NCBI GenBank assembly: GCA_965221735.1
Contig: OZ244910.1
Coordinates: 1,753,760-1,817,759, forward strand
Length of the DNA: 64,000 nt
Direction of reading: 5' to 3'
From: Tepidiformaceae bacterium
GTDB lineage: Bacteria; Chloroflexota; Dehalococcoidia; Tepidiformales; Tepidiformaceae
Below, piece after piece: positions 596-29,845 of this stretch; positions within the stretch are counted from its first letter, which is position 1, and each line of letters opens with the position of its first letter. Both the position numbers and the translations under genes were made by a program. The notes below the pieces were generated by a model. The model had not been told where the DNA came from, searched no databases, and worked only from the letters and a program-made list of their open reading frames with translations.

Positions 596-3098
596 ATGAA
601 CCGATTTCTTGACTCGATGAGCAGGGTGGTCACGGCCCGGCCCTATCTCACGATAGCCGTGCTCGTCGTCATCACGATCGTGCTGGGCGCAGGCGTGACG
701 CTACGCGCCGAGCTCGACGAGACGGACGGGTACTTCCCCCGCGACAGCGCCGTCGCCAGGGCGCTGGATGAGATCGATCAGCTCTTCGGGGAGTCGGGCG
801 AGATCAGCATCGTCACGCTGCTCTTCCGGGGAGAGGCCCTGACCCCTGAGGGACTCTCGCAGATGTCCGGACTGCTCGATGAGATTGCAGGCGACCCCGA
901 GCTGGCGGCGCTCCTGACGCCGACCGCTCCGATCGCCGCGCCCTCACTGTTCATCGGGGCCGCGCTCCAGACGGACAGCTTCGAGTCGCTCTCGCAGGAA
1001 CAGGCTCGACGCCGTGCGCGGCGTTCCCGAGGTCCAGGCCGCTCTCGCGGCGATGACGGGAACCGACAGCGACGGCACACCGGTGGCGATCGCCACGCTG
1101 CGCCTTCGAGACACCGGGGACGGGCGAATAGCGGACGCGGAACGCCAGGTGTACGACCTCGCGGCCGGCGCCGACGGCCCCCTGCGCGTGAGCAGTGTGT
1201 CGAAGGCGGTGATCGAGGATGAGTATCAGCGGTCGTACCGGGAGGACATCACCCCGCTGATTGGGGCAGCCTTCGTGCTGATCGCGGGCCTGATATTCCT
1301 CCTGCTGCGGTCGCCATCCGACCTGGTGCTCTCGCTGGCAGGCCTGTTGATGGCCATCGTGTGGATCGTCGGCACGGAGGGCTGGTTGGGGCCGAACGGG
1401 CTGGGCCTCCTGGGACGGCCGAGCGGGATATCGGTGATTATCCCGATAGTCATCATCAGTCTCACGGTGGACTACGCCATTCAGGTGGCGCTGCACTACC
1501 GGGAAGCGCGAGCCAACGACACGTCGGTGCGAGCAGCCTGCGGGACAGGGCTGCGAACGGTGACCGTTCCGGTCGGCCTGGCGGCGCTCACCACGATCGC
1601 CAGCTTCATGGTCGGGTTGTTCTCCCCCATCCCCGCGATCGGCGACTTCGGCGTCGTAGCCGGAGTGGGCGTTGGGATGAGCATGATCGTGATGCTGACG
1701 CTCTTGCCGGCTGGCCGGCTCATCATCGACCGGCGGCACGAGTCGCGCGGCCGGCTGGCTCCGCCCCGGTCGGTCTCCAAGGGGTTGCCGGGCATCGAGC
1801 GCGGTGCGGAGCTGCTGGGGAGAAGTGTCGCTCGCACGCCCGCGTTCTATCTCGTCGTCATCCTGCTGGTGTCGATCGGTCTCGGCATCGCCTCCACGCG
1901 AATCGAGTCCAGGTTCAGCGTGCTGGACATTCTGCCCCGGGGCGGGAGTGTCACGAATGACCTCGAGACGCTGAATGCCGCCGTGGGCGGTTCACCGGAA
2001 CTGGCCAACGTGCTCGTTCACGCGGAGGCCACGGAGACCCACACACTTGTGAGCCTGCACGCGCTGACGGCCGCCTTCCTGGACGAGGGGCAACGACCGC
2101 AGGCTGCGGCGGGACCGATTCTGGCGTCGTTCGAGCTCCTCGCGCAGGACTGGACGAATGACAGCGGCGAGCCCGGGGACAACTACGACCCGGAACTGGC
2201 CGCGCTCTTCGAGGAAGCCACGGCGGGGGTGCGTTTCGACCCAGCGTTGATACAGGAGTTCCTGGAGAAGCTGGCGGCGCGGGAGCCTGCCATCTCGAGC
2301 TTGATCGTCAACGATCCAGACGGCATCGATGCCATCCTCCTCCAGTTTCCAACCTTCACGAACGACCCGGACAAGACGAAGGTCCTGCAGGAGGAAGTCG
2401 AGCGGATCTGGTTCGGCGAAGACGACGCCATCACGGTGACTTCCGAGAGCGTGACCTCCGTGACGTTGACGGAGGAAATGACGAGCAGTCAGACAGAAGC
2501 GATCATCACCGCGGTTGCCGCGGCTCTCGGCATCCTGTTCGTGTTCTACTGGATCACCCTTCGGCAGCCCCTGCTGGCCTTCATCGCCATCGGCCCGATC
2601 GTTCTCGTCCTGTTCTGGATCATCGGCACGATGGCCCTGCTGGGGATTCCCTACACCCTCGTAACGGCGACCATTACCGCGCTCTCTGTCGGAATCGGGG
2701 TGGATTACACGATCCACATCATCCATCGATACCGGGAGGAGTTCGCCCGCATCCGCGACCCCGAAATCTCGGCGGTCTACACCCTGAAGACGACCGGTTC
2801 CGCCCTCCTGGGTTCCGCTCTCACCACGGGTCTTGGGATAGGGATGTTGATCTTCTCGCCGGTGCCTGCGCTGCAACAGTTCGGCATCACGGCGGTGATT
2901 GCGATTGCCTATTCCCTGATAGTCTCCATGGTGCTGGTGCCACCGGCGATGACGCTCTGGGGCGCGTACCAGGACATGCGGCTACGTTCGGCGGCGCAGG
3001 ACTGGTCGAGTGAGCTCCGTGATCTCGACGACGCCATCGAGGCGATACACCGGCGCCACGCCGAGCAAGAAGGGGGTTCTTCCGGCCATGCTCCCTAG
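596..3098 (+). pseudogene. MMPL/RND-superfamily membrane transporter with an apparent +1 frameshift near 1004
   Basis: The N-terminal ~135 codons (MNRFLDSMSRVVTARPYLTIAVLVV..., TM1 plus an extracytoplasmic loop) read in the frame of 596. The rest reads in the frame of 1014 and has two TM bundles, each followed by an MMPL-type motif (TVDYAIQVALHYREA and GVDYTIHIIHRYREE). Removing one G at caGGct (about 1003-1004) joins the frames as ...SLSQEQ|LDAVRGVPEVQAAL... Confidence 0.7.
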
Positions 3099-3173
3099 CG
3101 ACAAACAGCTGACCGTCTCCCCGCATGCGGCGCCATCCCGGGCTTCCGGGCCCGTTGCAAGGACCTTCCCGGC

Positions 3174-5192
3174 ATGACAAACCCAGCCGAAGCGAACAGC
3201 GCCACGCTCTCCCTGCCCGAGGAGCTGCTGCTGATGCTCCTCAACGAGGAGAGCGGGTACTTCCACCACGTGCCGGGGTGGACCCTGAACTGCACCCTCA
3301 TCGGCGCCGTGCTGGCGGAGCTTGCCTTCCGGTACCGCATCGACTCCGACCTCGAGTCCCTGTTCATCGTCGACGACACACCAACCGGCATTGCCACGCT
3401 GGACCCCTTCCTGGCGGAAATCGCCGGGGAGCCGGAGCAACACGGCACGGAATACTGGATCGAGCGGCTCGCTCCGCGTGCGGAGGGAATCATCGACCTG
3501 GTGCTCGGCAACCTGGTTGAACGGGAGATCCTGCGCCATCACGAGGGCGATTTCTGGACCCTGTCGCGCTCGGTCTGGCAAGCGCAGTCCGACCGCCAGG
3601 ACGGGATAGCGGGCGACTTCGTGAAAACGCGCATCCCGACGATCATCCTGTCGGATGCGATTCCCGCCCCGCGCGACGTCATCACCATCGCGCTCCTGAA
3701 CGCCTGCAACGTGCTGCACTATCTCATGCCCTTCGACGAGGAGGCCGAGCAGCGCGTCGATGTCATCTGCCGGGTCGACATCATCGGCCGGTCCATCGCC
3801 GATGCGGTGAGCAGCAACATCGCCAGGCCGCAACTGCATTCGGCCCTCACCAAGGAGATACCGCGCCTTTCACTGCGCAAGCTGCTGTTCAATCCCCACC
3901 TGCGCTCCGGCAACCTCGCGGCGCTCTTTGCCGACCTCGCGAGGGAATACGGCCCGGTGTTCGAACTGCGCCCGCCGTTCGCAAAGGAGCCGTACATCTT
4001 CCTCGCAGGCCCGGAAATCAACCGCTGGGTGCAGAAGCATGGCCGCTTGTTCCTGCGCTCCAAGGAGTACCTGGCCAGCACCGAGGCGGCCCATGGCAGC
4101 TCCCGGACCATCCACAGCATGGACGGGGCCGATCACTTCCGTTTTCGCAAGGCGTTGCAGCCCTCACACGCACCGGAAACCTTCACCCGCCGGATCGACG
4201 AGGTCTATCGCATCGCACGGCAGCAGGCGTCGTCGTGGAAGGTGGGCGACATCGCTCCCGCCGAGTCCTTGTTCCGGCGGTACCTGAACGCGCAGATGTC
4301 CCCGCTCCTGATAAGCCTCGACACCCAGGACGAGTTTGAGGACATCTTCCTGTTCAACCGACGCCTGCTCTTCACCTACCTCACGGGGATCGTTCCCAAG
4401 TTCCTGTTGAACACACCGGGCATGAGGCGCAGCGCCAGGGTCGTCGCCGACCTGGCCGAACGGATCAGGACCAGCCACACCCCGGCCCAGCGGGCCGGCC
4501 AGCCCCCGGACGTCATCGACGGCTACCTCTCCGTCCATGCCAACGACGAGCAGTTTCTGCCCGAGACCGACCTCGGCTTCCCGCTCAACGCATTGACGCT
4601 GACGGGCCAGTACCTCGGGGATCTGACCAGCTTTATCTTCTACCACCTGGCGTCGAATCCCGACATCTACAGGCGCGTGCAGGCCGAAGCCGACGCACTG
4701 TTCGCCAACGGCGACCCCACCGGCGAAGACCTGACGCCGGCCAACCTCGACGTCACGCATCGCGTGCTGCTGGAGGCCCTGCGGCTGACGCCCAATGTCA
4801 ATCTCTCCATGCGCCACGTGATGAACTCGTGCGTGGTCGAGGGTTATCAACTGCCCTTGCGCGCGCCTGTCGTCATCGCCCAGACCGCTCCCCACTACAT
4901 GGAGGAAGTGTTTCCGGACCCCCTCACGTTCGACATCGACCGCTACCGGCCGCCGCGCAACGAGCACCTCACCCCGGGGTTTGCGCCTTTTGGCCTGGGC
5001 ACGCACCGGTGCATGGGCAGCCAGTGGGCCGAGAAGCAGGTCGCCCTCAACGTGATCTTGCTGGCGCACCACTTCACGTTCGAGCTGTCGCCACCGGACA
5101 CCGAGCTGCGCACCAGCCCCTTCCCGACGCAGTCGCTCAGCAACAAGATCAAGCTCGTCATCAAGGAAAAGCGGCACGAACTGCCCGCCTGA
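3174..5192 (+). CDS. GPP34/GOLPH3-like domain fused to a cytochrome P450
   Basis: 672 aa. Residues ~12-225 (LSLPEELLLMLLNEESGYFHHVPGW...) look like the GPP34 family. Residues ~240-672 are a P450, with ExxR (LLEALRL) and the heme-thiolate loop FAPFGLGTHRCMGSQWA. Confidence 0.75.
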   Translation: MTNPAEANSATLSLPEELLLMLLNEESGYFHHVPGWTLNCTLIGAVLAELAFRYRIDSDLESLFIVDDTPTGIATLDPFLAEIAGEPEQHGTEYWIERLAPRAEGIIDLVLGNLVEREILRHHEGDFWTLSRSVWQAQSDRQDGIAGDFVKTRIPTIILSDAIPAPRDVITIALLNACNVLHYLMPFDEEAEQRVDVICRVDIIGRSIADAVSSNIARPQLHSALTKEIPRLSLRKLLFNPHLRSGNLAALFADLAREYGPVFELRPPFAKEPYIFLAGPEINRWVQKHGRLFLRSKEYLASTEAAHGSSRTIHSMDGADHFRFRKALQPSHAPETFTRRIDEVYRIARQQASSWKVGDIAPAESLFRRYLNAQMSPLLISLDTQDEFEDIFLFNRRLLFTYLTGIVPKFLLNTPGMRRSARVVADLAERIRTSHTPAQRAGQPPDVIDGYLSVHANDEQFLPETDLGFPLNALTLTGQYLGDLTSFIFYHLASNPDIYRRVQAEADALFANGDPTGEDLTPANLDVTHRVLLEALRLTPNVNLSMRHVMNSCVVEGYQLPLRAPVVIAQTAPHYMEEVFPDPLTFDIDRYRPPRNEHLTPGFAPFGLGTHRCMGSQWAEKQVALNVILLAHHFTFELSPPDTELRTSPFPTQSLSNKIKLVIKEKRHELPA

Positions 5193-5202
5193 GAGTCAGC
5201 GG

Positions 5203-5230
5203 CGGACGGTGGCCAGCAGACCACCGTCCG
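5203..5230. terminator. Perfect 10-bp hairpin between the P450 stop and the tRNA-Asn 3' end (possible bidirectional terminator)
   Basis: cggacggtgg / ccagcaga / ccaccgtccg. No clear U-tract. Confidence 0.4.
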
Positions 5231-5282
5231 GGCCTGTCTCCATCGCGCGCCGAGGCGGGGGCAGGGTTCCCGATGGCGGGGG

Positions 5283-5357
5283 TGGCTCCCCGGCGAGGAT
5301 TCGAACCTCGAACCTAGCGGTTAACAGCCGCTCGCTCTACCGTTGAGCTACCGGGGA
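5283..5357 (-). tRNA. tRNA-Asn (anticodon GTT), CCA encoded
   Basis: The reverse complement folds as a 75-nt cloverleaf: TCCCCGG TA GCTC AACGGTA GAGC G AGCGG CTGTTAA CCGCT AGGTT CGAGG TTCGAAT CCTCG CCGGGGA G CCA. Confidence 0.95.
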
Positions 5358-5458: not shown

Positions 5459-6799
5459 ATGGCCAGGATTCACACGGGTCTCCAACCCCTTCCCTGGCCC
5501 CGACGAATCTGGCGGTTCTGCCTCGTCGCCTGGAACTTCGTCGTCCTCTACCTGGGCTACAAGCGCATCCAGAAGACGCCCGGTCTGAGCGAGGCGGAGC
5601 GCAAGGCGCGCTACCGCGAGCAGCACCGCGCGACGGGCGAGCGGCTCTACCGGCTGGCGATCCGGATGCAGGGCCTGCTGATCAAGTCGTGCCAGTTCCT
5701 GAGCAGTCGGGCGGACGTGGCGCCGCCGGAGCTGGTGGCGGTGCTGAGCCGTCTGCAGGACTCGGTGCCGCCACGGTCGTACGAGGAGATCGCGGGGCAG
5801 GTGCGGCGGGAGCTGGGGGCAGCGCCGGAGGAGGCGTTCGCGAGCTTCGAGCGCGAGCCGATCGCGGCGGCATCGCTGGCGCAGGTGCATCGGGCGGTGA
5901 CGCACGAGGGTCGCGAGGTGGCGGTGAAGGTGCAGTACCCGGGCATCTCGCGGGTGGTGGAGACGGACCTCCGCAGCATCAGCATGCTCATCGAGATCCT
6001 GGCGCGCATCGAGCGGCGGTGGGACTTCCGCATGCTGATCGCGGAGATCGCGGACTACACGCCGCGGGAGCTGGACTTCGTCGCGGAGGGGCGGAGCGCA
6101 GAGCGGGTGGCGCGGGAGCTGTCGCACCGGCCGGACGTGCGCGTCCCGGAGATCGTCTGGGAGCACACGGCACAGCGGGTGCTGACGATGGAGTACATCG
6201 ACGGCATCAAGATCTCGGCGACGGACGAGCTGGTGGCGGCGGGGATCGACCCGGACGTGGTGGCCCGGATCATGATGGAGGCGTACTGCGAGCAGATCCT
6301 CGTGAACGGCTTCTTCCACGCCGACCCGCACCCGGGGAACCTGCTGGTGCTGCCGGGTCCGGTGGTGGTGTTCCTCGACTTCGGGATGAGCAAGCACCTG
6401 CCGGACGACTTCCGCAAGACGTACAACCGCTTCACGCTGGCGGTGCTCAGCCAGAACGACGCGGGCATGCTCAAGGGGTTCCAGGACCTCGGGTTCCGGA
6501 CGCGTTATGACGACCCGGAGATGCTGGTGGCGCTGGGGCGCTCGTTCTTCGAGTCGGCGGGGCCCGAGCAGCGTCCCTACGCCGATGCCGAGGTGATCGG
6601 CGAGGTGAACGAGCGGCTCGCGAGGCTGCTGTCGGAGAACCCGGTGACGGAGATGCCTCCCGACATCCTGCTGATCCTGCGGGTGCTGGGCCTGATGAGC
6701 GGCCTGCAGAAGCGGCTCGACAGCACGGTGGACGTGGCGGAGACGATCACGCCCTTCGCGGAGGCGCAGATCGCGGGCGAGGCGGCGGCCGGAAGCTAG
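5459..6799 (+). CDS. ABC1/UbiB-family atypical protein kinase
   Basis: 446 aa. Typical ABC1 block: FASFEREPIAAASLAQVHRAVTHEGREVAVKVQYPGI ... FFHADPHPGNLLV. Confidence 0.85.
   Translation: MARIHTGLQPLPWPRRIWRFCLVAWNFVVLYLGYKRIQKTPGLSEAERKARYREQHRATGERLYRLAIRMQGLLIKSCQFLSSRADVAPPELVAVLSRLQDSVPPRSYEEIAGQVRRELGAAPEEAFASFEREPIAAASLAQVHRAVTHEGREVAVKVQYPGISRVVETDLRSISMLIEILARIERRWDFRMLIAEIADYTPRELDFVAEGRSAERVARELSHRPDVRVPEIVWEHTAQRVLTMEYIDGIKISATDELVAAGIDPDVVARIMMEAYCEQILVNGFFHADPHPGNLLVLPGPVVVFLDFGMSKHLPDDFRKTYNRFTLAVLSQNDAGMLKGFQDLGFRTRYDDPEMLVALGRSFFESAGPEQRPYADAEVIGEVNERLARLLSENPVTEMPPDILLILRVLGLMSGLQKRLDSTVDVAETITPFAEAQIAGEAAAGS
6776..6799 (+). repeat. Direct repeat, left copy (3' end of the ABC1 kinase CDS including the stop)
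   Basis: 23/24 identity with 7511-7534. Confidence 0.85.
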
Positions 6800-6909
6800 G
6801 GGGCTGAGCAGCTATTGGTTAGCTGCCTACTCAGATATGCTAGATTAGCGTGTCTATTCGGTAGAATGGGAGGGATGGGGCGATTGTCCCCGCGGGAGGA
6901 GGAAGCACA

Positions 6910-7485
6910 GTGACTGAACTGATCATGGCGTCGTTCATTGGAACCTCGCTAGCGCTTCTGCTGGCGTATTTCACCAAGCTCGCGAAGAACGGCGCGTGGA
7001 CAGTGTTTCGGAGAGCAAGGTCTCAGTGGCTCGCCTTCAGGGGAGAGCGGCGGCGCAAGCGGAGGATGAAGTGGGTCAGGGAGCAGCAGTTTCACATGAC
7101 TCACCTTGCCCATCTTGCGAATACAGCGGAGGACTATCGACTACGGCACCCCGATTGCTGGACTCACCCCATGTGGCACGCGTTTTGGGGTGCTACTCGT
7201 GAACTCGGGGAAAGGAACATCACGGAGGAGCTGCACTACCCAGGCTCCGATACTCATGTCCAGTTGGTGTCAGGACGCGACTTCGGATTGAGGATGCGAG
7301 GGGGAACAGGCGAAGACAGTTGGCACGTCGAGCACCACGCCGCAGGCGACACATGCGGCGGAGGCTCCGGCAATGCACCGGAGTACTGTGTCTGCGGTCA
7401 GCACTACTACGACCACAACCCCTTCCACTGGTCCAGCACGTGCCTTGGTCCGTTTCTCCCCCAGGCAGGTACCATCGCAGCCTAG
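6910..7485 (+). CDS. Orphan hypothetical protein with an N-terminal TM helix and a Cys/His-rich C-terminus
   Basis: 191 aa with a GTG start 7 nt after GGAGGAGG. N-terminus IMASFIGTSLALLLAYF. Basic stretch RGERRRKRRMKW. C-terminus HVEHHAAGDTCGGGSGNAPEYCVCGQHYYDHNPFHWSSTC. No family recognised. Codon composition differs from the neighbouring genes. Confidence 0.5.
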   Translation: MTELIMASFIGTSLALLLAYFTKLAKNGAWTVFRRARSQWLAFRGERRRKRRMKWVREQQFHMTHLAHLANTAEDYRLRHPDCWTHPMWHAFWGATRELGERNITEELHYPGSDTHVQLVSGRDFGLRMRGGTGEDSWHVEHHAAGDTCGGGSGNAPEYCVCGQHYYDHNPFHWSSTCLGPFLPQAGTIAA

Positions 7486-7510
7486 CGGCGGGCCCGCCTT
7501 GCCACCGAAA

Positions 7511-7534
7511 GGCGAGGCGGCGGCGGGAAGCTAG
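7511..7534 (+). repeat. Direct repeat, right copy
   Basis: Reads KGEAAAGS-stop in frame, the same peptide end as the kinase gene. Confidence 0.85.
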
Positions 7535-7581
7535 ACGCTTCTCGCTAGCGTTATACGGGGACATTCGCTAGTCTTGGTTAG

Positions 7582-7614
7582 CCCTTTAAGGCGGTCCCGA
7601 GAGGCTGCCAAGGG
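7582..7614 (+). promoter_or_regulatory. PyrR-binding hairpin in the pyr leader
   Basis: CCCUU-uaa-GGCGG-[UCCCGAGAGG]-CUGCC-AAGGG. The terminal loop matches the conserved PyrR recognition loop (UCC.GAGAGG). The 3' arm overlaps the GGAGG at 7613-7617. Confidence 0.7.
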
Positions 7615-7627
7615 AGGAGGCGCCGCC

Positions 7628-7690
7628 ATGAGCGGCTGGCCCTGCGCAGGCCCGAACACCCCCCACCTGACCAGGTCGTTTCCGCGATGA
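7628..7690 (+). CDS. Possible 20-codon leader ORF translationally coupled to pyrR
   Basis: ATG 8 nt after GGAGGAGG. Peptide [20 protein letters not shown]. Its TGA overlaps the pyrR ATG (ATGA at 7687-7690). Confidence 0.35.
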
Positions 7691-8241
7691 GTCCCGTTGA
7701 GCTGCAGCGGGGCCAGGAAGTCGCGCGCACGATCCGGCGGCTCGCGCACGAGATCGTCGAGAGCAACGGCGGCGCGGAGAACCTCGTGCTGGTCGGATTG
7801 CTGACGCGGGGCGCGCCGCTGGCGGGGCGGCTGGCCTCGGCGATCGAGGCGTTCGAGGGGGCGTGCCCGCCGGTGGGGCGGCTGGACGTGGGGCTGTACC
7901 GCGACGACGTGGCGCAACGCGACCCGCCTCCTCCCGTACGGCCCAGCGACATCCCCCTCGGGGTCGACGGCGCGACGGTGGTGCTCGTCGACGACGTGCT
8001 CTTCACGGGGCGCACGATCCGGGCGGCGATGGACGCAATCATGGACTTCGGGCGGCCGGCGCGGGTGCGCCTGGCGGTGATGGTGGACCGCGGCCACCGC
8101 GAGCTGCCGATTCGCCCCGACTTCGTTGGCCGCAACATTCCGACGGCGCCCTCGCAAACGGTCGAGGTGCGGCTGGCGGAAACCGACGGCGAGGACGCGA
8201 TCTACCTGATGGAGGGAGCCGACAGTCATGGTGAGCATTGA
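7687..8241 (+). CDS. pyrR: Bifunctional pyrimidine operon regulator / uracil phosphoribosyltransferase PyrR
   Basis: 184 aa. PRPP loop [16 protein letters not shown], then [18 protein letters not shown]. Confidence 0.93.
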
Positions 8242-9253
8242 ACCGGCCACCCCGACCGCCACCGAACCGGAACCGCAGCCGGCAGAGGCCGTCACGGAGG
8301 ATCCCGCCGTCTGGGTGCGGAAGGACCTGCTCGACACGGACACCCTCTCGGCCGAGGAGATCGACCTCGTGCTGGAGACGGCGGACGCGATGGCGGAGGT
8401 GCGGGAGCGGCCGGTGGGGCGGGTCGCGACGCTGCGGGGGACGACGGTCGTGACCCTCTTCTACGAGAACAGCACGCGCACACGCGCCAGCTTCGAGATC
8501 GCGGCGAAGGCGATGGGCGCCGACGTCATCAATTTGGCGGCGACGGGTAGCAGCGTGGGCAAGGGCGAGTCGCTGGTCGACACGGTGCGCACAATCGAGG
8601 CGGTGGGGGCGGACATCGTGGTGATACGCCACGCGAGCTCGGGGGCGGCGGCGCTGGCGGCGCGACACACGAGCGCGGGCGTCGTGAACGGCGGCGACGG
8701 GTCGCACGCCCACCCGACGCAGGCATTGCTCGACCTGTACACGATGCGGCGGCACGTGGGCAAGCTGGAGGGGCGAAAGGTCGTCATCGTGGGCGACATC
8801 CTGCACAGCCGCGTGGCGCGCTCGAACCTGTGGGCGCTGCGGGCGGCGGGGGCGCAGGTGACCCTCTGCGGCCCGGCGACGCTGCTGCCGCGGTCGCTGG
8901 GCTCGCTGCCGGGGTACGAGGGGCCGGGGGGCTGCGAGGTCACGACGGACCTCGAGGGGGCGCTGACGGGGGCGGACGTGGTGATGGCGCTCCGCCTCCA
9001 GCGGGAGCGGCAGGACCAGGGTCTGCTGCCCTCCCTGCGCGAGTACATCCGGCAGTACCAGGTCACGGAGGAGCGGCTGGCGCGGGCGAATCCGGGGGCG
9101 CTGGTGATGCACCCCGGCCCGATGAACGAGGGCGTCGAGATCGCGCCGGAAGTGGCACACGGGCTGCGCTCGGTGGTCGAAGAGCAGGTCACGAACGGGG
9201 TGGCGGTGCGCATGGCCATCCTCTACCTGATGGCGACAGCGAGGCGACGATGA
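8228..9253 (+). CDS. pyrB: Aspartate carbamoyltransferase catalytic subunit
   Basis: [17 protein letters not shown] and HPTQALLD motifs. The start is uncertain (Pro/Glu-rich N-terminal extension). Confidence 0.92.
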
Positions 9254-29592: not shown

Positions 29593-29724
29593 GACGCGCC
29601 TCCGGATAGCGCCAACGTATGTTGGCGGCACCCATGAGTGTACGACCAGCGGCACGGCTGCGTCAGGTCGCACACAGGGGGAGCCGGGCAGGGGTGCTAA
29701 ACTGTAAAGGCCGAGTTCCCGCGG

Positions 29725-29845
29725 ATCCGTCGATTCGCCGGGGAGCGGGGGAACCCTTTGTTGGGGTGAATTGCGCGAGAGCGCATAGGCGATCTCCGAC
29801 GCCGAACCCGTCAGCTAACCCCGCAGGCGTTCGGAGGCTCGCGAT
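29725..29845 (+). promoter_or_regulatory. ydaO/yuaA-class (c-di-AMP) riboswitch, boundaries approximate
   Basis: The + strand carries the three conserved blocks of the class: AGCGGGGGAACCC (29744-29756), UUGGGGUGAAUU (29761-29772) and CCGAACCCGUCAGCUAACCCCGCAGGCGUUCGG (29802-29834). Flanking pairing: CGUCG 29729-29733 with CGACG 29796-29800. It lies 94 nt upstream of the KamA-family ATG. Confidence 0.75.

Follow-up and report, generated by a model that had tools for sequence, protein, structure and literature searches.

Phage 21 and e14 integrate into the 3′ end of a protein-coding gene, icd of Escherichia coli, and supply a replacement for the gene end; prophages of this type encode an integrase and are tens of kilobases long. 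In Dehalococcoides, repeats of about 20 nt that derive from the 3′ end of ssrA flank islands with strain-specific cargo, including CRISPR modules; these islands measure several kilobases or more, form tandem arrays and in about half of the cases carry a CcrB-type serine recombinase module (McMurdie et al. 2011, PMC3146451). Hotspots that lack mobile-element genes and turn over by recombination in the core genes on either side occur commonly (Oliveira et al. [quoted passage not shown] Here we analyze a 735-bp segment, flanked by a 24-nt direct repeat, that lies between the gene for an ABC1/UbiB-type atypical kinase and the pyr operon in a 64,000-nt stretch of DNA from a Tepidiformaceae bacterium (phylum Chloroflexota, class Dehalococcoidia; assembly GCA_965221735.1, contig OZ244910.1, positions 1,753,760 to 1,817,759), hereafter the window. 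The locus is an unusually compact example of an already known class, the mobile-element-free hotspot with displacement relics. On balance, and with slightly more confidence than doubt, we favor the explanation that the segment is one allele (cassette A) of a multi-allelic exchange hotspot that works without a recombinase, the second copy of the kinase tail being a displacement relic; with the same guarded preference, we place the hotspot in the gap of approximately 12 nt between the kinase stop codon and the pyr promoter region of Tepidiformaceae-like Chloroflexota.

The kinase gene (5459..6799, plus strand, as are all features below unless stated otherwise; Pfam ABC1, E = 2.4e-78) forms the conserved left flank of this slot and was found in 39 related loci at 64–98% identity. 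Its last seven codons and stop codon (GEAAAGS-stop), GGCGAGGCGGCGGCCGGAAGCTAG at 6776..6799, make up the first copy of the repeat, the functional kinase 3′ end, and sequence comparison identifies the second, non-coding copy at 7511..7534, with 23 of the 24 nucleotides identical and a start-to-start spacing of 735. An earlier, sequence-only reading of the window had described this repeat as eight codons plus stop; the 24-mer and its GEAAAGS-stop ending are borne out, and the count becomes seven codons plus stop. With up to three mismatches allowed, the 24-mer has exactly two matches in the window compared with 0.01 expected from shuffled sequences, and no similarity extends past these 24 nt in either direction. 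Nor is the 24-mer a GC-rich string strewn about at large. Its 9-mer core GGAAGCTAG, in approximately 600 kb from related loci, is confined to kinase tails and the right ends of cassettes. The drop in composition between the two copies proved equally real, positions 6800–7534 being the stretch of lowest GC content of its size in the window (0.604 vs a mean of 0.692, with a standard deviation of 0.028 for 735-nt windows), such that only 0.2% of all 735-nt windows in the 64 kb are as GC-poor; the GC content at third codon positions in the single open reading frame (ORF) of the segment, ORF A, is 0.70 vs 0.89–0.95 in the neighboring kinase, pyrR and pyrB genes. Conversely, the 9-mer TTGGTTAGC after each copy, considered as a second repeat, is compatible with chance, since 213 of 2000 shuffles scored at least as high as the observed sequence.

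Comparison with related genomes shows directly that the window carries an insertion. A scan of species-representative genomes with the kinase protein yielded 32 loci, all from metagenome-assembled genomes (MAGs) of Tepidiformaceae, Dehalococcoidia or Chloroflexota and many on complete chromosomes; another 8 were obtained from a metagenome scan, and further loci came from look-ups of ORF homologs, for a total of about 45 (denoted L001 and so on), including at least 20 complete chromosomes. The gene for tRNA-Asn (GTT) (5283..5357, minus strand; ARAGORN; Rfam, 70.9 bits), the kinase gene and pyrR–pyrB are syntenic in all related loci, the tRNA gene being 100% conserved in almost all of them and located directly upstream of the kinase gene in all relatives, and the distance between the kinase stop codon and pyrR ranges from 146 to 5474 nt. 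Ten sites are empty (146–173 nt; L001, L005, L008, L014, L017, L018, L019, L020, L029 and L040). In three of these (L001, L005 and L008), which encode kinases 94–98% identical to that of the window, a single copy of the tail runs straight into the leader that in the window follows the second copy (7535..7686; the pyr operon promoter and leader, nearly identical in the empty-site relatives and forming the conserved right flank of the slot). Thus, the insert in the window, flanked by direct repeats of its target, has an exact empty counterpart, and the earlier proposal of an insertion is upheld by the comparison of empty sites across relatives that it had called for.

At least nine different contents, cassette A among them, were seen at the slot. 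ORF A occupies it in L003, L010, L011, L033 and L034 and is frameshifted in L035. A gene for a PaREP1/HEPN protein (gene B; Pfam, 2.7e-12) is found in L002, L004, L006, L009, L016, L028 and L045 and, frameshifted or split, in L013, that is, in eight loci overall, and gene C (204 aa), with a weak HEPN match, is present in L030. The remaining contents are the small ORFs D1 and D2 (L007), D1 with E2 (L037–L039), a leucine-rich repeat (LRR) gene (L015), a fusion of an N6_N4 methylase with Mrr (L023–L025) and, among the remotest relatives, genes for DnaJ-like and TetR proteins; in L031 (7342-12815), the slot is filled by a complete type II CRISPR-Cas locus that encodes Cas9 (1042 aa), Cas1 and Cas2 and includes an array of about 10 repeats of the 36-nt GTTTTGGTTGCCGACCGTTTCCTGATCTGATAAAAC at a spacing of 66 nt, beginning about 30 nt past the kinase stop codon. 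The recognized defense systems in the slot of the relatives are Cas9–Cas1–Cas2 with its array, the methylase–Mrr fusion and PaREP1/HEPN (eight loci). Some of the cassette genes are decaying, as seen in the frameshifted ORF A of L035 (L035:3986-4557) and the split gene B of L013 (L013:7348-7709).

These states are interleaved on neighbor-joining trees of the kinase and of PyrR: the empty L001 lies beside the A-carrying L003 and the window, and the A-carrying L011 lies beside the B-carrying L013. The interior of the slot is not fixed among relatives, and of the two outcomes named in the sequence-only reading as grounds for its rejection, neither was observed. That the repeat is a chance GC-rich match or an assembly artefact, or that the whole arrangement is ancient and fixed, derives some appeal from the GC-rich 24-mer with its slippage-prone GGC run; set against this are the expectation of 0.01 matches, the recurrence of the same architecture in seven independent assemblies, complete chromosomes among them, and the empty and alternative states in close relatives, so that we regard this explanation as having a negligible probability.

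Neither an integrase nor a transposase was detected in any of the gaps or among the called neighbors of the ~45 loci (whole genomes not searched), in agreement with the original remark that the segment lacks a recombinase. In this respect, as well as in the narrow interval between core genes, the many alternative contents, the rapid turnover and the possible signs of recombination at or near the flanks, the locus resembles the hotspots without mobile-element genes (PMC5635113). It differs from them in that the slot is very small, with mostly single-gene inserts of 0.5–1 kb in a gap of ~12 nt, in that its right border is marked by a duplicated gene end in one clade, and in that its cassette types share a promoter/leader module.

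The nature of the duplicated gene end can be read from cassette B. Gene B belongs to a large family (1905 matches), the members of which are located elsewhere in Chloroflexota beside dnaN, beside a nucleotidyltransferase partner or beside DUF433. The native B proteins, both at unrelated loci and in the slot of the more distant clade, end in ...PLASPAP-stop, ...PLAHPPG-stop or similar, with no repeat behind them. In L004, which belongs to the close clade, B ends in ...PLA-GEAAAGS-stop: the last codons have been swapped in frame for the kinase tail, with the switch point (ctggcg|ggc vs atcgcg|ggc in the kinase gene) falling at a 3-nt GCG microhomology, and the relic fused to the HEPN ORF is identical to repeat copy 2 of the window. 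The same fusion is present in L002, L006 and L009, with a 12-nt deletion in the GGC run (slippage), and in L030 gene C is followed by the last 30 nt of B, including a shortened tail. The length of the relic changes with the cassette, from 27 nt for B and 24 nt for A to 9 nt for D and ~8–10 nt for E2; the 9-nt relic is found behind D2 (L007) and also in L034, and the relic of E2 sits at the end of E2 itself. The repeat is absent behind the Cas9, methylase and LRR cargoes and behind the HEPN gene of the more distant clade, and it is degenerate or contains indels in the other A cassettes, compared with the near-intact copy (23/24) of the window. The same arrangement recurs one gene to the left in L003: the stop codon of a P450 gene there precedes an inserted ERG4/ERG24 gene, behind which, beside tRNA-Asn, lies a copy of the P450 3′ end that is degenerate and has internal deletions. 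Gene B is solitary at the kinase slot; elsewhere, homologs (~70% identical) lie beside a MNT-like nucleotidyltransferase or DUF433 (L048:3501-4277; L049:3225-3890), in a pairing reminiscent of toxin–antitoxin systems.

The B fusion is most simply read as a remnant of displaced resident sequence that is located downstream of an incoming module and joined to it at a microhomology. Together with the variable relic length, the leftovers and the likeness of the L003 junction, it argues that the right copy is a displaced kinase end rather than a working att site, and we accordingly consider displacement relics more likely than recombination at att sites. In the displacement scenario, incoming DNA would recombine homologously within the kinase gene on the left, whereas its right end would be joined by illegitimate recombination, through a short microhomology, to the kinase tail of the resident, leaving the displaced kinase 3′ end downstream as a relic, in the manner of homology-facilitated illegitimate recombination. 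Later cassettes may then have replaced earlier ones in the same frame, either trimming the relic from 27 to 24 to 9 nt or leaving pieces of their predecessors behind. Routine turnover, including the return to the empty state, would proceed by homologous recombination in the conserved flanks and in the shared 5′ module, with deletion between the two tail copies as a possible alternative route to the empty state. With the displacement of T6SS and Rhs modules, this scenario shares an incoming module that is anchored in a conserved gene upstream of it, the retention of the old 3′ end or its neighbor downstream as a relic, and the absence of a recombinase; it departs from those systems in that the anchoring kinase gene has no functional relation to the cargo, that the relic consists of 9–27 nt of the tail of the anchor itself instead of an immunity gene, and that arrays are lacking.

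The sequence-only reading had interpreted the two copies as attL/attR-like ends left by site-specific insertion. In its developed form, the kinase 3′ end would serve as attB, the cassette would be an element of the cis-mobilizable type, either decayed or non-autonomous, and an integrase encoded at some other place would move it in trans. A precise 24-nt repeat of a gene 3′ end combined with a precise empty site is what such an element would leave, and several other features fit as well: in several unrelated cassettes a tail-like end abuts the same base of the leader, the left boundaries of the A and B relics nearly coincide, the relic of the window is intact, and the empty sites of the close clade contain a short dyad, GAAGC-TAGAC-GCTTC, centered on the junction, as read from the sequence. 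The 20-bp repeat from the 3′ terminus of ssrA that flanks the Dehalococcoides islands, 15 of which lack an integration module, offers a precedent (PMC3146451). Yet no integrase was detected at the slot or among the called neighbors in any of the ~45 loci, at least 20 complete chromosomes included, no accretion arrays were seen, the length of the relic changes with the cassette, the Cas9, methylase and LRR cargoes and the B gene of the distant clade come without a repeat, the B ORF runs into the relic through a microhomology, the more distant clade does not conserve the dyad, and 2.9 million viral contigs contain no copy of the tail 21-mer. We therefore consider integration at an att site unlikely. 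Of the original claim, the insertion stands; the variable repeat length and the failure to detect an integrase at these loci lend no support to the attL/attR interpretation, and a putative trans-mobilized element is a less probable explanation than recombinational displacement.

The dyad, in the form GGAAGC-TAGAC-GCTTC(C) with the kinase stop codon in the loop, is located at L001:7330-7350, L008:4900-4920, L004:7715-7735 and positions 7524-7545 of the window. It is limited to the close clade and may serve either to bind a protein or, as a stem, to act like a terminator on the kinase transcript. A search for the kinase tail as a phage attP produced 12 matches to the 16-mer in viral contigs, at chance level and without extension, the best of them (L050) lying inside a long phage ORF, and this candidate was rejected.

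The comparison with the two best-known types of insertion into a gene 3′ end follows the same lines. The slot and the ssrA islands share the phylum and, judging by the GTDB-style names of the MAGs, the class, as well as a repeat derived from the 3′ end of a single-copy gene and the fact that some islands are integrase-less, but the slot has neither the large size nor the arrays of these islands, nor their recombinase module, constant repeat and constant insertion point. In particular, nowhere in the related loci do intact cassettes stand in tandem with copies of the repeat between them. As in the icd prophages, the insert is bordered by a second copy of the 3′ end of a protein-coding gene, which itself remains whole; unlike in these prophages, the insert consists of one cargo gene, with no recombinase.

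Sequence divergence across the locus provides a further view of its turnover. The cassettes of L010 and L035 are 99.2% identical, compared with 96.4–96.8% for their flanks, with the tract of low divergence extending from approximately 50 nt inside the cassette to the pyr leader, and the rate of synonymous substitutions (dS) of ORF A is 2–4 times that of the kinase for many pairs. These observations suggest that cassette alleles have been exchanged or are older than their flanks, and they would fit homologous recombination in the flanks. They bear on the possibility of a repeat-driven shuttle that needs no dedicated enzyme, in which recombination or slippage between the tail copies would excise a circle, made up of the cassette and one copy of the tail, that re-enters an empty site by a Campbell-type single crossover in the 24–27-nt tail, a mechanism that would act like an integron without an integrase. 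Such a shuttle would account for the precise empty sites in sisters of carriers (L001 beside the window and L003), for the refreshed, near-perfect relic of the window and for cassette alleles that are closer to each other than their flanks (L010/L035), and a length of 24–27 nt is close to the minimum for RecA-dependent exchange. Nonetheless, the L010/L035 tract begins ~50 nt inside the cassette, not at the tail, and continues through the leader, the relics of most A cassettes have decayed too far, or have too little length (9 nt in L007 and L034), to provide homology, and exchange via the long conserved flanks would be far more efficient; we find this mechanism quite improbable. An equally low probability attaches to the more general proposition that the kinase tail and its copy form a working recombination site at which leader-bearing single-gene cassettes are excised and re-inserted, either by a distant host recombinase or by repeat-dependent recombination. 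If true, it would amount to a system of cassette exchange, similar to an integron although the locus has no integrase, that cycles small conflict or defense genes in an uncultured Chloroflexota lineage.

With integron cassettes, the slot has in common that small, mostly single-gene units are exchanged at one chromosomal point. The slot cassettes differ from them in having no attC-like repeat, no intI or attI nearby and no arrays, and in possessing a promoter-like leader of their own; specifically, no attC-like inverted-repeat structure was found at 7486–7534, and the adjoining genes are those for the kinase and the pyr operon. The ends of the cassette are not inverted copies of each other either, which is relevant to yet another origin of the repeat, namely target-site duplication by a transposase- or casposase-like enzyme making staggered cuts 24 nt apart at the kinase tail. 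Direct repeats do flank the insert at the gene 3′ end, and long duplications are known for Cas1-type integrases. A cassette without terminal inverted repeats, with neither a transposase nor Cas1 in it or near it, with a repeat length that differs between cassettes and with the B ORF fused into the repeat is difficult to reconcile with this origin, which we judge highly improbable.

Several observations weigh against displacement by homology-facilitated illegitimate recombination. No native A cassette without a relic was found, such that the relic junction of A itself is not reconstructable. The relics of A (24 nt) and B (27 nt) start within 3 nt of each other, a coincidence that is unlikely for independent illegitimate joins and that calls for a further assumption, the replacement of B by A; upstream of the A relic, no sequence derived from B can be detected (the only candidate remnant, a 5-nt gccac noticed by eye upstream of the relic in the window, was judged a chance match). 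The relic of the window is identical to the functional tail in 23 of 24 positions as opposed to the degenerate relics elsewhere, so that a recent regeneration by a repeat-dependent process is possible. Furthermore, the kinase 3′ region is no more alike in genomes that share a cassette type than in genomes whose cassettes differ, and co-transfer of a cassette with the kinase end is, for want of this linkage, not visible. We know of no published case in which homology-facilitated illegitimate recombination has produced a duplication as opposed to a deletion, and natural competence is, to our knowledge, not known in this uncultured lineage. Finally, the defense role proposed below for ORF A is one of association only, PADLOC having returned no match.

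Cassette A resembles a self-contained expression unit, with a −10-like element, a hairpin, a strong Shine–Dalgarno (SD) sequence and one gene. Its 5′ module (6800..6909) contains a post-stop hairpin (6804-6834), the conserved motif CTACTCAG (6827-6834), the −10-like hexamer TAGAAT (6862-6867), a 5′ untranslated region (UTR) hairpin, GGGGCGATTGTCCCC (6877-6891), and the SD sequence GGGAGGAGG (6894-6902), followed by ORF A (6910..7485; 191 aa, GTG start), a spacer that corresponds to the cassette 3′ UTR and is homologous in other A cassettes (7486..7510), and repeat copy 2. The first hairpin, the hexamer, the SD sequence and the ORF are all as previously noted. As an alignment of 11 cassette leaders shows, the YTACTCRG motif, the −10-like hexamer and the GGGGC-N-GCCCC hairpin before the SD sequence are in register in all A cassettes, upstream of a 48% identical homolog of ORF A on the 1.3-kb contig L036 and in the unrelated D cassettes; the hexamer varies among cassettes (TAGAAT, TACAAT, TAGGAT and others). 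The hairpin at the position of 6877–6891 folds in 9 of 9 variants and recurs at the homologous positions of L003, L007, L010, L011, L033, L034, L036, L037 and L038, with L037 containing the compensated variant GGGAAC/GTTCCC in place of GGGGC/GCCCC, and might function as an mRNA 5′ stem or as an operator. Types A and D are 82% identical over the first 60 nt after the kinase stop codon and have nothing in common in their ORFs, which indicates that the leader is a module shared between cassette types. A search with the leader pattern matched only at the kinase–pyr slot in the window and the ~600 kb of related loci, and no further copy of a cassette gene, of the leader or of the tail was found in these sequences outside the slot. 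Simple σ70 and terminator scans of the cassette gave no match, Rfam detected nothing within it, the downstream PyrR hairpin being the only match, and the 121-nt leader as a whole folds no better than shuffled sequences (z = −0.42).

ORF A is a real gene under purifying selection (pairwise ratios of nonsynonymous to synonymous substitution rates, dN/dS, 0.14–0.31). At the N-terminus of the protein, a hydrophobic helix precedes a stretch rich in Arg and Lys, and the C-terminal part is rich in Cys, His and Trp; the helix followed by the Arg/Lys stretch suggests a single-pass membrane anchor with the remainder of the protein in the cytoplasm. Homologs are rare: 8 proteins were found in a collection of 5.8 billion clusters and 3 clusters in a profile search of 1.84 billion representative proteins, and every close homolog that could be placed is located in the same kinase–pyr slot. 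Profile searches against Pfam, PADLOC, PHROG and PDB produced no match, and ORF A was not found in viral contigs. The AlphaFold2 model is poor (predicted local distance difference test score, pLDDT, 58.8), with a long N-terminal helix, a few other helices and four strands and with the Cys/His-rich tail unmodelled, and a Foldseek search with this model yielded no match at E ≤ 0.001; the profile and structure predictions recommended for the 191-aa protein thus gave neither a family nor a fold. The Pfam families FixO and UPF0158 were dismissed as sub-threshold noise, and a relationship to D1 was rejected upon comparison, which revealed no homology. Our best guess, by analogy with the company it keeps, is that ORF A plays a role in conflict with phages or mobile elements; we extend this guess to the small membrane proteins of the D and E cassettes because the slot also carries CRISPR-Cas9, a methylase–nuclease fusion and HEPN proteins.

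To the right of the slot, the pyr leader includes a PyrR-binding hairpin (7582-7614; Rfam RF00515, 31.1 bits, below the gathering score of 54 and matching the hairpin part only) and is followed by pyrR (7687..8241; Pfam Pribosyltran, E = 1e-24), pyrB (8228-9253; 3′ of pyrR) and further pyr genes. In the loci with D1 and E2, a different sequence replaces the stretch from the tail relic to the pyr leader (L037:7250-7330; L038:7560-7640). It comprises two copies of a unit of ~25 nt with a consensus TTGACA at the proper distance from the GCTAAC that forms the −10-like element of the leader, and looks like a rebuilt or duplicated pyr promoter. On the other side, tRNA-Asn borders a second variable region on its left (1014-5282 of the window). 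There, the window, L001 and L003 encode a transporter of the MMPL/sterol-sensing-domain type (1014-3098) and a GPP34–cytochrome P450 fusion (3174-5192), and other relatives carry peroxidase, acetyltransferase, PPDK/cadherin-like or thiolase genes; L003 (region L003:4100-5830) adds the sterol-reductase-like ERG4/ERG24 gene, which results in a sterol-related trio in a Chloroflexota MAG. Elsewhere in the window, a c-di-AMP riboswitch of the ydaO/yuaA type is present at 29699-29844 (plus strand; Rfam RF00379, 78.7 bits).

For annotation, the locus calls for caution, as a duplicated gene end beside an insert is not by itself evidence for an att site. The leftovers at the slot, namely the kinase-tail relic, the fusion of the HEPN gene with the tail and the remnant of a predecessor, record the order and the type of recombination events, and the concentration of conflict genes in the slot makes ORF A, D1/D2 and E2 reasonable candidates for new defense or toxin-like functions. 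The kinase–pyr slot is a compact case of accessory-gene turnover without mobile-element machinery in uncultured Chloroflexota.

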